Source: Lewinellaceae bacterium (GTDB taxonomy: Bacteria; Bacteroidota; Bacteroidia; Chitinophagales; Saprospiraceae). Taken from it: a stretch of 64,000 nt of DNA. A program made the position numbers and the translations under genes. Position 1 is the stretch's first letter, and each line of letters opens with the position of its first letter. The stretch covers positions 43,670 through 107,669 of the forward strand of contig JADJRC010000015.1 in assembly GCA_016712415.1 (NCBI GenBank). The letters run 5' to 3'. Positions 24,792-32,778 of this stretch are shown one piece after another. The notes under the pieces are model-generated. The model was not told where the DNA came from. It searched no databases and saw only the letters and a program-made list of their open reading frames with translations.

Positions 24792-25166
24792 TTATTCAGG
24801 CTTAAAATAAGGATTTTTGATAATGCCGATCACGTTGCCCCAGGGGTCTTTTACAGTGGCCACGATGATGCCTTCACCGACGTCGGCGGGTTTTGAAAGC
24901 GCCGTGGCGCCCTGTGCCAGCAGGCGATCGTAAGTGACAGCCGCGTCGTCGACCCCCCAGTAGGTTTCCACGTTTGCTGTCTTGCCGGCGGCCGGGGCAT
25001 CGTCGGGCAGCAGGCCGAGTTCGAAGCCGCCTACATTGAAACCCACGTAGAAGGGTTCGTTAAAATAGGGGCCGAAGCCAAGCACTTCCGAATACCATTC
25101 TACCGCCCGGGCGAGATCGTCGACACGGTAGATGCAGGTGCGCAGACCTAGAAACGGCTTATCCAT
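24792..25166 (-). CDS. VOC (glyoxalase/bleomycin-resistance) family protein
   Basis: 124 aa. LRTCIYRVDDLARAVEWYSEVLGF ... VKDPWGNVIGII is the classic paired beta-alpha-beta-beta-beta pattern. Confidence 0.8.
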   Translation of the reverse strand: MDKPFLGLRTCIYRVDDLARAVEWYSEVLGFGPYFNEPFYVGFNVGGFELGLLPDDAPAAGKTANVETYWGVDDAAVTYDRLLAQGATALSKPADVGEGIIVATVKDPWGNVIGIIKNPYFKPE

Positions 25167-25253: not shown

Positions 25254-27159
25254 TTATTGACCCTGGCACGGAACTTCAGCCTTTACCTGTTCAATAAGAT
25301 TGTTTAGGGATGGTACAAAAAGACTTGAGGAGATAACAGCTTCTGAAAGAGCTGTGCATGCCTGGTTATTATTTCCTGTTTTATTCAATACTTCTGCCAT
25401 CCTGGCAAGTGTATTGGCTACAAATTCGGCATAACTTACCTTTCTATACAGGAGAAGGGCATTGCCCCACTCTTCAAGAGCCAGGGGGCCGTTATTTTCG
25501 TTATACCATGCAATCATGCCTTTGCTCCACATAATGTTTGCTTTTCCCAAATCCGAGCCTACTTTTTCAAAAAGGGGGAGAGCCTGCTGATAGAGGGCAC
25601 GCGCTTTGTCGTTTTCGCTCAAAAGCCTTTCCAAATCGCCCAAACTTTTGAGCGTGTTTGCTTTCCCAAATCATCGCCTACTTTTTCAAAGGAGAGCCTG
25701 CTGATAGAGGGCACGCTTTGTCGTTTTCGCTCATTCATTTCCAAATCGCCCAAACTTTTGAGCGTGTTTGCTTTCCCAAATCCGAGCCTACTTTTCAAAG
25801 GGGAGAGCCTGCTGATAGAGGGCACGCGCTGTCGTTTTCGCTCAAAAGCCTTTCCAAATCGCCCAAACTTTTGAGCGTGTTTGCTTTTCCCAAATCATCG
25901 CCTACTTTTTCAAAAAGGGGGAGAGCCTGCTGATAGAGGGCACGCGCTTTGTCGTTTTCGCTCATTCGCATTTCCAAATCGCCCAAACTTTTGAGCGTGT
26001 TTGCTTTTCCCAAATCCGAGCCTACTTTTTCAAAAAGGGGGAGAGCCTGCTGATAGAGGGCACGCGCTTTGTCGTTTTCGCTCATTCGCATTTCCAAATC
26101 GCCCAAACTTTTGAGCGTGTTTGCTTTTCCCAAATCATCGCCTACTTTTTCAAAAAGGGGGAGAGCCTGCTGATAGAGGGCACGCGCTTTGTCGTTTTCG
26201 CTCAAAAGCCTTTCCAAATCGCCCAAACTTTGGAGCGTGTTTGCTTTTCCCAAATCCGAGCCTACTTTTTCAAAAAGGGGGAGAGCCTGCTGATAGAGGG
26301 CACGCGCTTTGTCGTTTTCGCTCAAAAGCCTTTCCAAATCGCCCAAACTTTTGAGCGTGTTTGCTTTTCCCAAATCCGAGCCTACTTTTTCAAAAAGGGG
26401 GAGAGCCTGCTGATAGAGGGCACGCGCCGCTTCGTGATTGTCAAAAAAGAACCATTTGTTTCCAAGATTTAGGGCAACCTGGGCATAGTCAGCCGCAAAT
26501 CTGTCGCCTTTGGTTACAAGGGGGTCCAATTTGTGCAGGCGTTCTTCCAGTTCATCAATTTCCTGCTGTTGCTTGGGGGGCATGGCCGTGGCGAGGCCTG
26601 AAAACCGGGATTCGATATTGTGTTGCCATTGAAGTGTGCCGGGCAACATGCGGAAGTGGAACTTATAAACCAGCCAATCCCAGAAGTCGGGAGCAAGGCT
26701 TTGCACTCGGACCTGTGCGGGCTCGTCGCTCCAGAAGACAACTGAGGCCGGAAGGTGGCGGAACAAGAGTTCCCGTTCGAAGTTAAGCTCGCGAGCAAAT
26801 GCTTCTGCCGGGTCATTTTCATCGGCCGTTACAAGCGATTCCAAACCAAAGATATGGAACAGTGGATAAGTGTCGTTTTCCGTATCCGTTACTGCTGTCT
26901 CTTGCCTTAGCAGTTGGTAAAGTGAGAAGGAGTCGGTTACTTTTACTTTCGAAAGATTTTGCGATTTGTGGATATAACGATCTTGTAATTCAATGCTTAG
27001 CAGGCGAAACATCTGGTCCCGGAGGTCGCGATTTTCTGCTGTTACCCATACGATAACTGGATGGTCACGCTGTTGGAGCAGATTGAGCATCCTGTTCCAC
27101 GCAGTGTCGTTCTGTGTTCTGATCTCATCACGTTTTTGTTCCAGTTGTTCCCTGTTCAT
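25254..27159 (-). pseudogene. protein with a roughly 240-aa N-terminal domain of unknown function, about 8 near-identical 40-aa TPR/Sel1-like helical repeats and a helical C-terminal cap; the frame is broken by small deletions in the last three repeats
   Basis: ORF 25795..27159 (454 aa) holds 5 repeats of ALYQQALPLFEKVG[SD]DLGKANTL[KQ]SLGDLE[RLL/MRM]SENDKAR. ORFs 25619..25825 and 25254..25643 continue the same repeats in other frames and end with ...NNLIEQVKAEVPCQGQ. The start ATG overlaps the upstream ATPase stop (ATGA at 27156-27159). Confidence 0.7.
25540..26425. repeat. tandem 120-bp coding repeat array (about 8 units)
   Basis: Units starting at 25921, 26041, 26161 and 26281 are exactly 120 bp apart and almost identical. 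A further unit starts at 26401 and diverges. Units starting at 25578, 25692 and 25803 are 111-118 bp long because of small deletions. Confidence 0.9.
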
Positions 27160-28464
27160 GCTTTCTCATCAGATTTTGGAAAAAAATCCTCAAGCAGGGG
27201 ATTGATCCGACGGACAATGTCGTCGCCATTGTATTCGAATACGTTGAGGGCAAAAAGCAGATCGAGTAATTCGGGTGAAATACCTTCAAAGTTGCGGCTT
27301 TCAAGTAGTTTGCGGTGCGAATCGGTGAGTGGACGCAAACGTTCTACGGCTAGTCGTTTAAACGTACTTTTGGCTATTTCCGTTGTGACGGTTTCATCTG
27401 TATCAAGAAGGCACTGGTTGACCAGCCGAAGTAATTGACGCGGGCTCCCACCGGACATTTTAGTGATCATTTTCAATACGTTATTATCAAACAGCCCTTT
27501 GTCGACCCGGCGGGTCACTATGTTGCAAAACGCTTCGCAGTCTTCATCTTCGTCTATATGAATCATCGGAAGATATGAAAACTTGAACAATTCAGCCGCC
27601 GCAGCCTGTTCCTGTACATTGTAATAGGTTTGAATAGGTACACAACAAATAAGGTGAGCGTTCAGGTTTTGGGTAAACTGCGGGTCGGTTAGGAAGATAG
27701 CATTATAAATTTCCGGACGGGCTTTTTCAAAATCATCAACGATAAAGATCAAATCGCGGCCCTTACCATGTCGCTCGATAGCATCGCGTACGCCAACGAG
27801 AGCGGTACGAAGCTGGCCTACGAGCCCGGGTGTATCGCGGCGTATCGCCTCACGAATTTTTGTGGTGGTACTATTCTGATAACCGTATTTACTTTTAATA
27901 AATCCTTCTGCAGAAAAAATATCCCAGAAATTCCAGCCTGCTTTTGCCTCGACACCCGCTTCTGCTCCATAGTTGTAATTCAATTCTTTTTCAACTTCTT
28001 TATCCTGTAGCCATGCGTGTGCGATGTCTTCGAACTCTTTTTTTATTATATGGGACATTATGTTCGCGAAAGGTGCGCAAAAGTTTGTTAATCAGAATGA
28101 TAAAAAGGTCTTCCGGTTGCATTTTGAGGATTTCAATTTCTTCCTGCAAACTGACAAATACCGAAAAATACTGCCTGGGGGTGTTAATTGATTCATGGAA
28201 CCGGAGAAGTTCGACGGTTTTGCCGCATCCGCGATGCCCGGAGAATAAAATTTTTATGTAGTCATTGGGCAAATGTGTCAGCTCATCACCTGTGATACCC
28301 AAGTCTTTTTTTATCCGGGTAAATTGCTTGGGACTGCGCAATTCCTGCAGATGCACGTATAGGTTCTCTCTACCGGATTCAAAGATATCGAACTCGGGCT
28401 CGGTAGTTTCCATGGCCCGGAAAACGTCTTTTTCTGGAAAGGTATATTGATATTTTTTGTTCAT
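27156..28464 (-). CDS. ORC/Cdc6-like AAA+ (STAND-like) ATPase, with a 1-bp indel in the T7 run at 28038-28044
   Basis: Start MNKKYQYTFPEK at 28464. Walker A ILFSGHRGCGKTVEL, Walker B DLIFIVDDFEK, sensor-2/lid-like SGGSPRQLLRLVNQCL. ...TFREHNVPYNKK joins EFEDIAHAWLQDKE when one base of the homopolymer is removed, which links ORFs 28000..28521 and 27156..28058. Confidence 0.75.
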
Positions 28465-28551
28465 TTTTTTAAAGAAAAGCAAGCAAATGTAATGACTTTG
28501 GCTGTTACAAAACGCAATCATCTTCTTGCGTAAATAACATAATTGCTGAGG

Positions 28552-29103
28552 TTAGGTTGTACTGTACGCATCCGCCTCCTTAAACCGCCAAATGTCGTAC
28601 ACCATCACGGCAATAATGATTCCGGCAGGGATAAAAAATATTTTTGTGTGCAGGCTGGGAAACAAACCGACACTCAGCATGGCGCCGAATACAAAGCTGA
28701 TCATTACGATAAAGCGCAGCAGCGCTTCCCGCTGGATGAGGCGGCGTTTCTCCCCTTCGGAATGGAATATTTCGGCGATGTCCACTCCGAGTTCATTGAC
28801 CACACCCGTCATCTGGCTGGCCTTGATCAGGGAGGAGGTCGTGAGGCTTACCATGGCATTCTGGATACCGATGGCAAACAACATCATCCCCGGAAAAGCC
28901 ACGGGGTGCAGTGCTCCGGAATTGTCGGCGGCGGCGGCGACGAACGTAAAAAGTCCCGCCACAACAGCCAGCGGTACCAGGTGGAGGTAGCGCCACTTCA
29001 ACAGTTTTTCGCGCTCCACGCACCACCCGGCAAAGAAGCCGCTTTTTCGTTCGGCTTGATCAGGATTTCGCCCAATGCAGGCGGTTTGAGGTATTCGTAC
29101 CAA
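28552..29103 (-). CDS. DUF1275/YoaK-like membrane protein (N-terminus uncertain)
   Basis: 183-aa ORF with several hydrophobic helices and the motif AIGIQNAMVS typical of YoaK-like proteins. An ATG at 29124 lies in another frame, so the 5' end may also be frameshifted. Confidence 0.45.
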   Translation of the reverse strand: MVRIPQTACIGRNPDQAERKSGFFAGWCVEREKLLKWRYLHLVPLAVVAGLFTFVAAAADNSGALHPVAFPGMMLFAIGIQNAMVSLTTSSLIKASQMTGVVNELGVDIAEIFHSEGEKRRLIQREALLRFIVMISFVFGAMLSVGLFPSLHTKIFFIPAGIIIAVMVYDIWRFKEADAYSTT

Positions 29104-29197
29104 CGGTTTTTCATATGCGGTTGATTATTCTATCCTAAAATGTTGATTTTTGCGGGTCAATCCAATCCACATCTACTTTTCCATCAAGGCAGTAAAC

Positions 29198-30471
29198 ATG
29201 TCCTGCTGCCCGATTACTGTAAATTCCGGTCCCATGCGCACATTACAATCCTGGCTTTCCATTCCCGGCGACACTGATTTTTCCCTGCATAATCTGCCAT
29301 ACGGTATTTTTCATACCGGCGACGGGCGTGCCCGCGCGGGCATCGCAATCGGCGACCATATCCTCGACCTGGAGGCTGCCGCAGCGGCGGGCTTGTTCGG
29401 TAAACGTCGTTTTTTCAAAAAAGTATTTGCACAAACGACGCTCAACGATTTTATCGCATTGGGAAAACCCGTGACCAACCGTATCCGGCGCAAGGTGCAG
29501 GACTGGCTCTGTCAACCCGAAGCGCCAGAAAATGCCGAAAATCTGTTGGTTAATCGCCTGACCGCACACCTGCTCATGCCCGTACGGGTAGGCAATTATA
29601 CGGATTTTTACAGCAGCATCGAACACGCCACTAATGTAGGCAAAATGTTCCGGCCCGACAACCCGCTCCTGCCCAACTGGCGCTGGTTGCCGGTGGGTTA
29701 TCACGGCCGCGCTTCATCCATCGTGGTGAGTGGCACACCTGTGCGGCGCCCGCATGGCCAGGTGCTGCCCAAAGGTCAGGAGACACCCGTTTTCAGCCTT
29801 TCACAGCAGATGGACTTTGAGCTCGAAATGGCTTTTGTGATAGGAAAAAACAGCAGTATCGGCGAGACGATACCGGTTGAAAAGGCTGACGAATACATCT
29901 TCGGGCTGGTGTTGTTCAACGACTGGAGCGCCCGCGATATACAACGCTGGGAGTACGTGCCGCTCGGTCCGTTTCTGGGCAAAAACTTCGCATCCTCGAT
30001 TTCACCCTGGATTGTTCCGCTTGAGGCCCTGCGCCCGTTTCGCGTAAAAGGACCGCGACAGAACCCGGCCCCCCTGGCGTATCTTCAAACCCGGGGCGCG
30101 CAGAACTACGATATTTCGCTTGAAGTTGCCCTCTCTACAGGCGAGAAAAGCCCGCAAACTATTGTATCCCGTTCCAATACAAAGTATCTTTACTGGTCTA
30201 TGGCGCAACAATTGGCACATCACACCGTCAACGGTTGTAATTGTGCGTGGGCGATCTGATGGCATCGGGTACGATCAGCGGCCCGGAAGCGGGTTCTTAC
30301 GGTTCGATGCTTGAACTCTCCTGGGGCGGCAAAGAACCTGTCCGGCTGAACGACGGCGCCGCCAGGACATTCCTGGAAGACGGCGACAAGGTGACCATAC
30401 GCGCCGTTGCGGCGCAGGAAGGTGTTCGTGTCGGTTTTGGGGAGGTCAGCGGTGTTATCCTTGGTGCTTGA
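29198..30471 (+). CDS. fahA: fumarylacetoacetase, with a frameshift near 30240
   Basis: FSLHNLPYGIFHTGDG..., NDWSARDIQRWEYVPLGPFLGKNFASSISPWIV (a FAH hallmark). ORF 29150..30259 ends ...HHTVNGCN. ORF 30241..30471 continues VGDLMASGTISGPEAGSYGSMLELSWGG... Confidence 0.85.
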
Positions 30472-30558: not shown

Positions 30559-32778
30559 ATGCCTTTAACGTTCGTGCTTCGGCTTTGCGGGGTATTGTCC
30601 CTGCCGCTTCGTTTGTGGAGCCTTGTTTTTTTTATTGTTTCGGGAGGAGTTTGGGAGTTGAGGGGGCAGTGTACGACAAATCTGTCCTTGACTGCAACAA
30701 ATTCTACAGGCACAACAGCTACATGGACAGCCCCGGCCTCTGGCGGTCCATGGATCGTTCAGATAACGGCTATGGGGGCAGGCGGCGGCGGAAACTCCGG
30801 CGGCGATCTTGGGGGCAGTGGAGCAACTATTAGTGGAATTTTTACTGTACAAGACGGCGAAACCTTATTGGCTATAGCCGGTGGGGCAGGAGAAAGTAAC
30901 AGCAACAACGGCGGCGGCGGCGGCGGCGGTTCAGGTGTGGTCAATTGCGGCAATCCTTCCGATTGCGCTAACGGGACCATTTTGTTGATTGCTGCTGGCG
31001 GCAACGGCGCGGAAGGCGATAATGACGGCTTGGGTGGTTCTGCACTTACGTCAGGTTCTGGCGATGGCGGTGTAGCGAATAATAGTTCAAATAGTGGCGG
31101 TGGCGGTGGCGGCTTGAACTCCCCAGGTGGGAATGGAACGTCAGGTTTCGGTGGTACCGCTATATCCAAAACGGGGTTGGCTACCGGTGGTGACGGCGTG
31201 GGAGGACCAGGAGACCCGGACGGCGGCGGCGGTATGGGCGGCGGCGGCGGCGGCGGAAGCAGCACATCCGAAGGCTCGGGCGGCGGAGCTGGACATACAG
31301 GGGCTACAGGCGGTAACACGCAGAATGCGTCTTCTTTTATTGATGCTTCGGGTGCACTGCAGTTCAGTAGTAATGGTTTGACGGGTGGTGGTTCTAATAA
31401 TGGATCGGTTACGATTCTTTGCCTGAGTGCGGTTTCCCAGGCAAACGACTGCAGCAATACGGTTGTCGTAAACCTTACCGGGCCTGGAGTTGCCGGTTGG
31501 AAGGCGCCAAGTACCGGAGGCCCCTGGCAGGTACAAATGGATGTAACGGGAGCCGGCGGAGGAAACTATAACCCAAGCGGATCAAATAATGACCGGGAAG
31601 GCGGCGGCGGGGCCACAATCAGTTCGACGTTTACGGTACAAAACAATCAGGTCCTGTTTGCCATTGCCGGTGGCGCAGGAACAGGTTCGGTAAATAATGC
31701 TGCGGGCGGCGGCGGCGGTTCTGGCGTAGTGAATTGCGATGTTACGGGGAATTGCGCAAGCGGGACGGTCCTCATCATTGCTGCCGGAGGTAACGGCGCT
31801 GAAATCGATGGCGCTAATGGCGATGGACAGGGAGGTTTATCTTCTGCAGGAGATGGCACGGGCGGAAGCGGCAATGGGGGAAACGGCGGCGGCGGCGGCG
31901 GCGGTAGGAATTCAGCGGGAGGCAATGGTGCAGATGGCGACGGTGGCGGTCAAGTTCCCTGACGGGGCTGTCTTCAGGAGGGGATGGGAATGGCAGCGGA
32001 GTAGATCCTGACGGCGGCGATGGCATGGGCGGCGGTGGAGGTGGTGGCAACGACACTGCCAACGGCTCGGGCGGCGGCGGCGGACATGAAGGCGGCGATG
32101 GAGGAACCTCAACAACCAATAGAGCACGTTCCTTTAATTCAGGAACACTGATTACCAGTAGCGACGGTACACTTGGCGCCGGCCCCTCAAATGGCACCAT
32201 CACCATTACTTGCCTCAGTCTCCCCCCGTCGAACTCATCAACTTCAAAGCGCTCATCCGCGACGACCAGACGGTCGATCTGCTTTGAGCACGGCCTCGGA
32301 AAAAAATAACCTGGGTTACGACGTGGAGCGCAGTGCCGACAACCAGAACTGGAAAACACTCGGCTTCGTGCCCGGAAACGGCACCACAACGGAACAACAC
32401 GAGTATGTTTTTACCGATGAAAAACCTTTTTCAGGGGTCAACTATTACCGCCTGAAACAACAGGATTACGACGGCAAATCGGAGTATTCACCTATCGTGG
32501 TAGCCGATATCCGTATGAACGGCCTGGACTTCGATATTTTCCCCAACCCGTCAGTCAGCGGCGAGCTCAACGTCCGGACGGTCAGCAAAGTTGAAGGCGA
32601 GGCATTGCTGGAGATATACGACTGGGTGGGTTACAAGGTGTACGAAGAGACGGTCCAACTGCTGAAAGGCACGATGGTTTACCCCGTCTCGATGGCAACT
32701 TTCCCGAAAGGCAGTTACACGGCCCGGCTTGAATTGCCCGACGGAACCCTGCTGTTCCGAAAAATCGTGTTGCAATAA
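30559..32778 (+). pseudogene. T9SS cargo paralog A: two tandem poly-glycine (Gly_rich-like) modules, an LPVEL-type beta domain and a T9SS CTD, with about 3 indels
   Basis: ORF 30559..31962 contains two copies of the pattern TWTAP.xGGPW.V...GAGGG...GATISxxFTVQ...AIAGGAG...GGGGGSGVVNC...C..GT.L.IAAGGNGAE. Frames switch near 31955, at the C6 run 32222-32227 and near 32288. The gene ends with ...FPNPSVSGELNV...LLFRKIVLQ. Confidence 0.7.

Follow-up and report, generated by a model that had tools for sequence, protein, structure and literature searches.

A stretch of 64,000 nucleotides from a Lewinellaceae bacterium (phylum Bacteroidota; contig JADJRC010000015.1 of assembly GCA_016712415.1, positions 43,670 to 107,669, hereafter the window) encodes on its minus strand two overlapping genes, an AAA+ ATPase (gene A, 28464-27156) and a tetratricopeptide repeat (TPR) protein (gene B, 27159-25254), which form a real, widely conserved and self-contained two-gene module that recurs in dozens of unrelated genomes, beyond what chance would produce. 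Gene A is predicted to encode an active AAA+ ATPase of ORC/Cdc6-STAND type, and the product of gene B would combine a dead AAA+-like domain at its N-terminus (the N-domain) with helices and a variable module. We propose that the two proteins, active ATPase and dead-AAA+ sensor protein, make up a two-subunit ATP switch resembling the nucleotide-binding leucine-rich repeat (NLR) receptors and likely related to biological conflict, a reading to which we give a probability of roughly 0.55. The pair had been singled out from the letters of the window as a candidate undescribed STAND-like module (the original prediction). No description of it was found in the literature searched, including the papers of Kaur et al. 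and their supplements; an earlier description elsewhere is possible.

The original prediction had named the co-occurrence of homologous pairs as its own refutation test, and such pairs do co-occur. One genome per species (~185,000 species genomes) was scanned with the P-loop pattern of the ATPase, which detected its relatives at 543 loci or more, and the best 80 loci were examined. The gene immediately downstream of the ATPase carried the N-domain in 72 of these 80 loci when searched with a hidden Markov model (HMM) built from six sequences, and clustering of the neighbouring genes identified ~5 more loci with divergent copies of the domain, for a total of ~72-77 out of 80. In all 78 pairs that were scored, the nearest possible start of the partner lay within -44 to +34 nt of the ATPase stop, with an overlap in 49, and in the contexts of individual homologues the gene at or overlapping the ATPase stop always opened with the N-domain. 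Gene B is probably translationally coupled to gene A, and the predicted ATGA overlap of stop and start codons is present in the window. Flanking genes varied by locus, and neighbour clustering across ~70 loci revealed no conserved third gene. An exhaustive profile search with the N-domain returned 2,562 cluster representatives, the domain being N-terminal in every match listed; word-indexed searches for its homologues were insensitive (17 matches in one and 151 in another, the 120 listed of the latter all being 349 aa or shorter).

The pair was found in Bacteroidota (Saprospiraceae, Chitinophagales, Cytophagales and Hymenobacter), Cyanobacteria (Pseudanabaena, Nostoc and Microcoleus), Desulfobacterota (Desulfobacterales including Desulfonema), Gammaproteobacteria, Planctomycetota, Acidobacteriota, Myxococcota and Chloroflexota, and in the filamentous archaeon Methanothrix; further carriers were Thiomargarita, Leucothrix, Thiolinea, Accumulibacter and Zoogloea. 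By impression from the organism names, filamentous and aggregating forms are over-represented among the carriers. Some genomes or contigs contained the module more than once (L058 13803-14330; L059 and L083 from the same Myxococcota metagenome-assembled genome, MAG), which suggests paralogous expansion.

Gene A had been described as an ATPase of about 435 aa with Walker A, Walker B and lid motifs, and the protein obtained after frame correction (see below) agrees with this description (Table 1). Across an alignment of 53 homologues, residues G76, G79, G81 and K82 of Walker A were invariant, as were G338, G339 and R342 of the lid, where a GxP-like motif is combined with a sensor-2-type arginine and the family form is GG[SC]PR. 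Residues D243 and E246 of Walker B were nearly invariant and belong to a family consensus, hhFIxDGxEK, of NACHT-like pattern. Two other arginines were invariant, R204 and, after beta5, R319; no conserved Arg or Lys was present in this alignment after beta4, the usual place of the AAA+ arginine finger, where the consensus reads VPIxxxY. The AlphaFold2 (AF2) model built from the same alignment (pLDDT 90, pTM 0.89) comprises an N-terminal extension (residues 1-70), a five-stranded P-loop core (strands 71-76, 99-105, 237-243, 270-274 and 294-298), a helical lid (helices within 329-376) and a C-terminal winged helix (381-427). Between Walker A and Walker B it has a ~90-aa helical insertion (residues ~141-231), which includes R204 and in which no transmembrane helix was evident on reading the sequence by eye.

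When this model was compared with PDB structures by Foldseek, the archaeal Orc1/Cdc6 protein 2qby_A ranked first (E 8e-7), and further matches were 1fnn, 1w5t, RFC/clamp-loader subunits and TnsC. At the level of sequence, the ATPase reached none of the curated cut-offs in Pfam, NCBIfam or PADLOC. Its similarity to PF24389 (ORC-CDC6-like) was confined to residues 331-359 (17.5 bits vs a cut-off of 27), and the scores for AAA_16 (16.5 vs 32.6) and the NCBIfam 'Sll1717 family' NF047389 (23 bits vs 75) were likewise low. No NACHT, NB-ARC or nSTAND model of Pfam matched at E up to 1, and a profile search against PDB sequences gave nothing below E 0.03. On the predicted model, then, the ATPase is ORC/Cdc6-like in fold, as had been anticipated, and its Walker B consensus and GGxP lid also recall STAND NTPases. 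Across the family the ATPases are stand-alone proteins of ~410-485 aa, with the repeats encoded in the next gene.

Gene B, reconstructed at ~640 aa, begins with a ~245-aa N-terminal region that is followed by tandem repeats. The expectation of a ~630-aa protein with about eight repeats held well with respect to the array, but what had been called an unrecognised 240-aa domain is better described as a predicted AAA+-like domain of ~170 aa plus a linker. In the AF2 model (pLDDT 86) the N-domain has two N-terminal helices and then five beta-alpha units, and the linker, of low conservation, forms long helices at 176-239. The domain lacks a Walker A motif, there being no GxxGxGK[ST] in the loop after the first strand. 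Its conserved motifs are PxxxW, hhHhxGLE in the third strand, LNFERELLF before the fourth and APDFWDW before the fifth, and N126, R129 and D158 did not vary among 43 diverse sequences that were aligned. The best Foldseek matches of the model in PDB were AAA+ cores (E ~1e-4, TM ~0.44), namely Aeropyrum ORC2 (1w5s_B, E 1e-4), human ORC4/5, proteasomal Rpt subunits, NSF, RFC and Rif2, an inactive protein derived from ORC4. These scores are modest, and they point to a degenerate, inactive AAA+-like domain. The domain matched no Pfam family and no related PDB sequence was found for it. The assignment as a dead AAA+ domain rests on the predicted fold because profile-profile comparison linked the N-domain neither to the ATPase nor to nSTAND2; in particular, the idea that the N-domain is a recent duplicate of the ATPase was rejected, as hhalign showed no significant similarity.

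The repeat part of gene B matched TPR_12 strongly (E 7e-61, 202.8 bits vs a cut-off of 30.1) and was resolved by Tandem Repeats Finder (TRF) as a 120-nt tandem unit present in 7.6 copies with 92% matches (25535-26427). The 40-aa units of the window vary only at unit positions 17 (S/D), 26 (K/Q) and 33-35 (RLL/MRM). In a near-identical strain (contig L002) the same unit variants occur in another order between flanks that are ~99% identical, a difference that is suggestive only, as short-read assembly of such arrays is unreliable. Tandem DNA repeats of 120 or 123 nt were present in 40 of 76 partner genes, with at least 85% matches in 27 of those 40, and homogenisation of the arrays has therefore taken place separately in many lineages. 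Repeat proteins in general seldom show such strong internal conservation, but it is enriched among fungal NLRs, in which it goes together with concerted evolution and diversifying selection (PMC4986451).

The modules fused to the N-domain differ widely among the partners. Although TPR were found in 61 of 79, the repeat part is separable: in Hymenobacter psoromatis (L014) the N-domain stands alone and the TPR are encoded by a third gene, and in other partners the repeats are replaced altogether. The conserved companion of the ATPase is the N-domain and not the repeat array. The domain heads a TIR-LRR-Roc-COR protein in a Desulfobulbaceae MAG (L008), proteins of NACHT-FGE-sulfatase, NNH1-NACHT and NB-ARC-TPR architecture, and WD40 giants of ~1,850 aa on plasmids of Acaryochloris and Nostoc, with an nSTAND1 module detected in the Nostoc protein. 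Other architectures were NACHT-TPR-cNMP-binding-cyclase, TPR-STAND-TIR and TIR-TPR, and a SpoIIE phosphatase was also seen. The N-domain thus occupies the position at which NLR-like proteins carry an effector or adaptor, and in the contexts examined it was accompanied by the separate ATPase. The original prediction had regarded the pair as a STAND protein whose NTPase and sensor are encoded by separate genes. The two coupled genes agree with this, but the idea of a STAND protein cut in two is only partly right because some partners already hold a complete STAND NTPase of their own (NACHT, NB-ARC or nSTAND1).

Some additional observations concern these partners. Proteins of ~180 aa that consist of the N-domain alone are common in cyanobacteria (for example P0254, P0270, P0274, P0301 and Nos7524_2755 of Nostoc sp. 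PCC 7524), although a contig end may have cut some of them short. Near the pair with the TIR-LRR-Roc-COR protein (L008, 14200-17266) one gene, of at least 1,732 aa, joins a protein kinase, a KAP/AAA_16 NTPase, GAF and a SpoIIE phosphatase, and a gene for a Uma2-family endonuclease is also close by. A distant pair lies on plasmid pREB2 of Acaryochloris marina (L095, 130599-143711), where the gene for a P-loop NTPase precedes one for a 1,830-aa protein that joins the N-domain to WD40 repeats; the 25 best Pfam matches of this protein were all of WD40 type and included no STAND module. The plasmid is conjugative and the context of the pair island-like: it is flanked by HicA/HicB genes on one side and a RelE/ParE toxin gene on the other, and genes for an integrase and a NACHT protein are found a few kb upstream.

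As a working mechanism, we suggest that the N-domain would dock on the ATPase as a pseudo-subunit, by analogy with the inactive subunits of clamp loaders (delta') and of ORC, and that its polar face (N126, R129 and D158) would contact the nucleotide site of the ATPase. These invariant residues are located on helices of the kind that face the nucleotide of the neighbour in AAA+ oligomers. R129 is a candidate for a trans-acting arginine finger, because the ATPase family has no conserved basic residue at the usual finger position. A protein or peptide ligand bound to the fast-evolving repeat array might then control the ATP-dependent assembly state of A and B, so that together they would work as a split NLR/STAND switch. 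The output of pairs with TPR alone could be the assembly itself, the ATPase, or nucleic-acid binding by the ATPase, whereas in the relatives a TIR, cyclase, phosphatase or Roc-COR module or a complete STAND receptor would be connected with the ATPase through the same N-domain. We infer that A and B interact physically, that R129 acts in trans, that the TPR array senses a ligand and that the role is immune.

The sensing of non-self or of conflict is preferred to a housekeeping role because the N-domain of the relatives carries TIR, cyclase, phosphatase, Roc-COR and STAND receptors. A role in conflict is favoured by the fusions to TIR, STAND, Roc-COR and cyclase, by the patchy distribution, by plasmid copies near toxin-antitoxin genes, by the low G+C content of the pair and by the dynamics of its repeats. 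A further-reaching proposal, which we put forward tentatively and with some doubt, is that the N-domain represents an adaptor of a new type, placed in many bacterial NLR-like receptors (NACHT, NB-ARC, nSTAND1, ROCO and TPR-only) where an effector or adaptor is carried, and that it recruits and switches on the dedicated ATPase encoded just upstream, to which it would supply R129 as the missing arginine finger. The ATPase would then be a trans-acting executor or amplifier of prokaryotic innate immunity, possibly through ATP-dependent assembly of a filament or ring on nucleic acid.

If the split switch is correct, the pair would be a widespread unnamed building block added to NLR/STAND-like switches, in which separate, coupled genes encode an active ATPase and a pseudo-ATPase domain, the latter a portable handle at the N-terminus of TPR, WD40, NACHT, NB-ARC, TIR and Roc-COR proteins. 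It would also offer a tractable two-protein system, with clear point mutants, for the gating of an ATP switch by inactive AAA+ subunits, and the near-identical 120-nt arrays would be the bacterial counterpart of sensors that evolve in concert in fungal NLRs. As both families are without a curated model, they are missed by current annotation and defence-finder pipelines.

The C-terminal winged helix of the ATPase resembles the DNA-binding one of Orc1/Cdc6, and the TPR part partially matches the models of AfsR, NsdA, MalT-type TPR and FimS. Both features suit a non-immune STAND-type regulator of the MalT or AfsR kind, in which the TPR would sense an endogenous or environmental ligand and the winged helix would control transcription or another process. 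In STAND proteins, however, the winged helix belongs structurally to the NTPase module and DNA binding is not required of it, and no conserved target gene lies near the pair. The signalling domains of some partners (cNMP-binding with cyclase, SpoIIE phosphatase) are not toxins and can be accommodated by a regulator, whereas the TIR, NACHT and NB-ARC fusions suit conflict systems better. The rarity of effectors and the weak defence-island signal described below would also be expected of a regulator, but the patchy distribution (at least 543 loci among the species genomes scanned), the plasmid copies that adjoin toxin-antitoxin genes, the low G+C content and the homogenised, fast-turning repeats would not. 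We regard such a regulatory role as a serious alternative and, on this balance, as rather unlikely.

Several observations weigh against the conflict-related switch itself. Most pairs, including this one, are without a recognisable enzymatic effector, and for this copy the absence had already been remarked in the original prediction. The ATPase matched none of the families of PADLOC-DB v2 and the partner only generic TPR models. Defence genes are not clearly enriched nearby, as strong PADLOC matches were obtained for ~5 of 137 randomly sampled neighbours (RT, NsnB, NsnC, DarG and HNH), a count without a matched background, and we consider an association with defence islands unconvincing. Searches of 50,697 phage records and of IMG/VR found no copy, and a phage or provirus origin was rejected on that basis. 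In the window, moreover, the setting is one of housekeeping genes (a topoisomerase IV subunit, fumarylacetoacetase and glyoxalase), the missing profile-profile link of the N-domain described above counts on the same side, and the frameshifts described below, if real, would leave this copy non-functional. The earlier suggestion that the pair follows the logic of conflict or immunity systems accordingly keeps the support of the partners with TIR, NACHT, NB-ARC, Roc-COR and cyclase and finds little in the genomic neighbourhood. The statement that no named system matches was borne out in PADLOC, Pfam and NCBIfam. The matches to NCBIfam DS41_1 were local (16.7 bits vs a cut-off of 370) and, as that to Sll1717 was also far below its cut-off and PADLOC was empty for the ATPase, identity with a named defence system was rejected.

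The logic of an active and an inactive NTPase encoded by two genes is not unprecedented. In the nSTAND2 systems (Kaur, Iyer, Burroughs and Aravind 2021, eLife; PMC8195603) a gene for an active STAND protein lies beside one for an inactive STAND protein fused to HEPN, GT4 or TPR, and a hetero-oligomer was predicted. The present pair shares this operon logic, in that an active NTPase gene adjoins an inactive NTPase-like module with eroded motifs that is fused to variable modules, and a few N-domain proteins hold a PF20702 nSTAND2-like NTPase further downstream. It might thus be a divergent member of the nSTAND2 two-gene system, but comparison of the N-domain profile with one nSTAND2 representative by hhalign gave a probability of 0.8% (E 0.07), and PF20702 was matched by neither protein of the window at E up to 1. 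On these two results, identity with nSTAND2 was rejected. Moreover, the nSTAND2 modules in the published alignment (PMC8195603) are ~320 aa long and bear a GGxP-type motif (GGGLPDL), whereas the inactive domain of the pair is a core of only ~170 aa, without lid or winged helix. The nSTAND2 systems are described with HEPN or GT4 effectors, mostly in Pseudomonas and E. coli, whereas the modules fused in the pair are mostly TPR arrays or whole STAND/ROCO receptors, and its carriers are Bacteroidota, cyanobacteria and others. Even a divergent membership is, in our estimate, very improbable.

Other known systems resemble the pair in part. STAND/NLR receptors (Avs, bNACHT, AP-ATPase/NB-ARC-TPR and fungal NLRs) have a G-x-P-like lid motif, a winged helix and TPR or WD40 arrays in common with it, and the likeness extends to the strong internal repeat conservation of fungal NLRs and to the relatives with TIR and other effectors. 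The pair differs from them in that NTPase and repeats are on two polypeptides, which the pseudo-AAA+ domain would bridge, that its ATPase stays below threshold for every STAND model of Pfam, that this copy has no N-terminal effector, and that the ATPase would be an additional component where the partner has its own STAND NTPase. Orc1/Cdc6 and clamp-loader assemblies (delta', Orc subunits and Rif2) supply the best structural matches of both proteins; they share with the pair the base, lid and winged helix and the arrangement in which an active ATPase works with a degenerate AAA+ paralogue. The sequence similarity to them, however, is limited to sub-threshold local matches at generic P-loop and lid motifs, and the pair has a ~90-aa Walker A-B insertion, no replication-gene context, a patchy distribution and an inactive partner fused to sensor repeats.

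The iSTAND/iSTAND2 ternary systems (MoxR-vWA with an inactive STAND; Kaur et al. 2020, 2021) likewise possess an inactive STAND-like constant component with variable signalling or effector fusions, but MoxR and vWA genes are required there, whereas the active partner of the pair is ORC/Cdc6-like and not MoxR. A MoxR-vWA/iSTAND ternary system was rejected, as no third gene recurred in the ~70 clustered loci. At one locus only, in Hymenobacter duratus (L009 4949-7749, the same locus as L040), the pair is directly preceded by a vWA gene and an AAA+ gene, the latter with faint Sigma54_activat and Mg_chelatase matches, an arrangement that recalls MoxR-vWA systems. The KAP (PF07693) and Sll1717 (NF047389) NTPases resemble gene A in that a large insertion separates Walker A from Walker B; in KAP proteins the insertion is often transmembrane. 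The KAP cut-off was passed by one distant homologue from a plasmid (26.2 vs 20 bits), another is annotated as a KAP family NTPase, and several members of the ATPase family match NF047389 weakly; the ATPase of the window, in contrast, had no KAP_NTPase match at E up to 1. No published function for Sll1717 was found in the literature searched.

Both genes have broken reading frames in the window. An A7 run splits gene A into two open reading frames (ORFs), 28521..28000 and 28058..27156, and deletion of one A restores a 435-aa protein with only two residues different from P0001, an intact database ATPase encoded on four metagenome contigs with the same neighbours (L001-L004). In gene B, ~9 deletions of 1-5 nt, 17 nt in total, break the frame within repeat copies 5-7 and fall mostly in homopolymer or GC-dinucleotide runs; the five copies upstream are clean. 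Gene B is in frame in L001 and L002, the latter with at least six intact copies, and its C-terminus is nearly identical in L001. Outside the array, the window and L001 differ by about one indel per 1.6-2.8 kb.

One way to read these lesions, together with a ~210-nt deletion in the adjoining DUF1275 gene relative to L001 and L002, is that the frameshifts are genuine and that a remnant of decaying pseudogenes is all that is left of the pair in this genome, with nothing functional encoded. The corrected ATPase, however, is only two amino acids away from an intact protein, and an extra homopolymer A together with deletions clustered in the interior of an array is what long-read consensus errors look like when polishing has failed. 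A 1-nt indel is also carried by the neighbouring housekeeping gene for fumarylacetoacetase, which supports residual indel errors in the assembly. As indels elsewhere are few and one of them falls in that gene, the frameshifts in both genes are, from these comparisons, most likely assembly (long-read consensus) errors that could not be polished inside the repeat array, rather than decay, and we judge the pseudogene explanation improbable. The fumarylacetoacetase indel is located at ~30240-30260 relative to L001 and divides the gene (29150-30471, plus strand) into ORFs 29150-30259 and 30241-30471. In the DUF1275 gene (28552-29103, minus strand), the missing segment maps to ~29037-29045 of the window (2277-2488 in L001) and its loss removes part of the 5' region, leaving an ORF of 183 aa and not 256 aa, which could be a strain-level event or an assembly error.

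Table 1. Coordinates of the features of the two-gene module in the window, with the evidence for each.
Feature	Position	Strand	Evidence
Gene A, predicted ORC/Cdc6-like AAA+ ATPase, 435 aa after correction	27156..28464	-	ORFs, sequence, intact near-identical P0001, AF2, Foldseek
Walker A GHRGCGKT, residues 76-83	28216..28239	-	Alignment of 53 homologues
Frame-breaking A7 homopolymer (A6 in near-identical contig L001)	28038..28044	-	Contig comparison
Walker B LIFIVDDFE, residues 238-246	27726..27752	-	Sequence, alignment
Lid motif SGGSPRQLLRL, residues 337-347	27423..27455	-	Alignment; lid helices in AF2 model
ATGA overlap, gene A stop codon and gene B start codon	27156..27159	-	Sequence
Gene B N-domain, residues 1-172, predicted degenerate AAA+-like alpha/beta	26644..27159	-	Alignments, AF2, Foldseek
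Gene B helical linker, residues ~173-244	26428..26643	-	AF2 secondary structure
~8 near-identical 40-aa TPR (TPR_12-type) units	25535..26427	-	TRF, Pfam, per-copy comparison
Damaged stretch, repeat copies 5-7	25640..25835	-	Per-copy comparison
Gene B C-terminus, degenerate last TPR and capping helical region to stop	25254..25534	-	Sequence

The pair is AT-richer than its surroundings, as had been seen by eye. Its G+C content is 46.2%, compared with 52.4% and 55.2% in the 10-kb flanks and 52.2% in the whole window, and falls within the bottom 0.3% when all 3.2-kb windows of the 64-kb stretch are ranked. The adjoining genes encode a glyoxalase/VOC protein (24792-25166) and the DUF1275 (YoaK-like) protein, the VOC and YoaK-like small genes between which the pair had been said to sit; their Pfam labels were taken from the near-identical contig L001. 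Among the wider neighbours are genes for fumarylacetoacetase and for a protein like topoisomerase IV subunit A. On the plus strand, at 30559-31962, lies an extremely glycine-rich ORF of 467 aa with GGGG runs and NGG/GSG motifs, in which a segment of ~250 aa is internally duplicated ('...TWTAPASGGPWIVQITAMGAGGGG...' and '...GWKAPSTGGPWQVQMDVTGAGGG...'); the G+C content of this region is locally high and its GC skew is strong.

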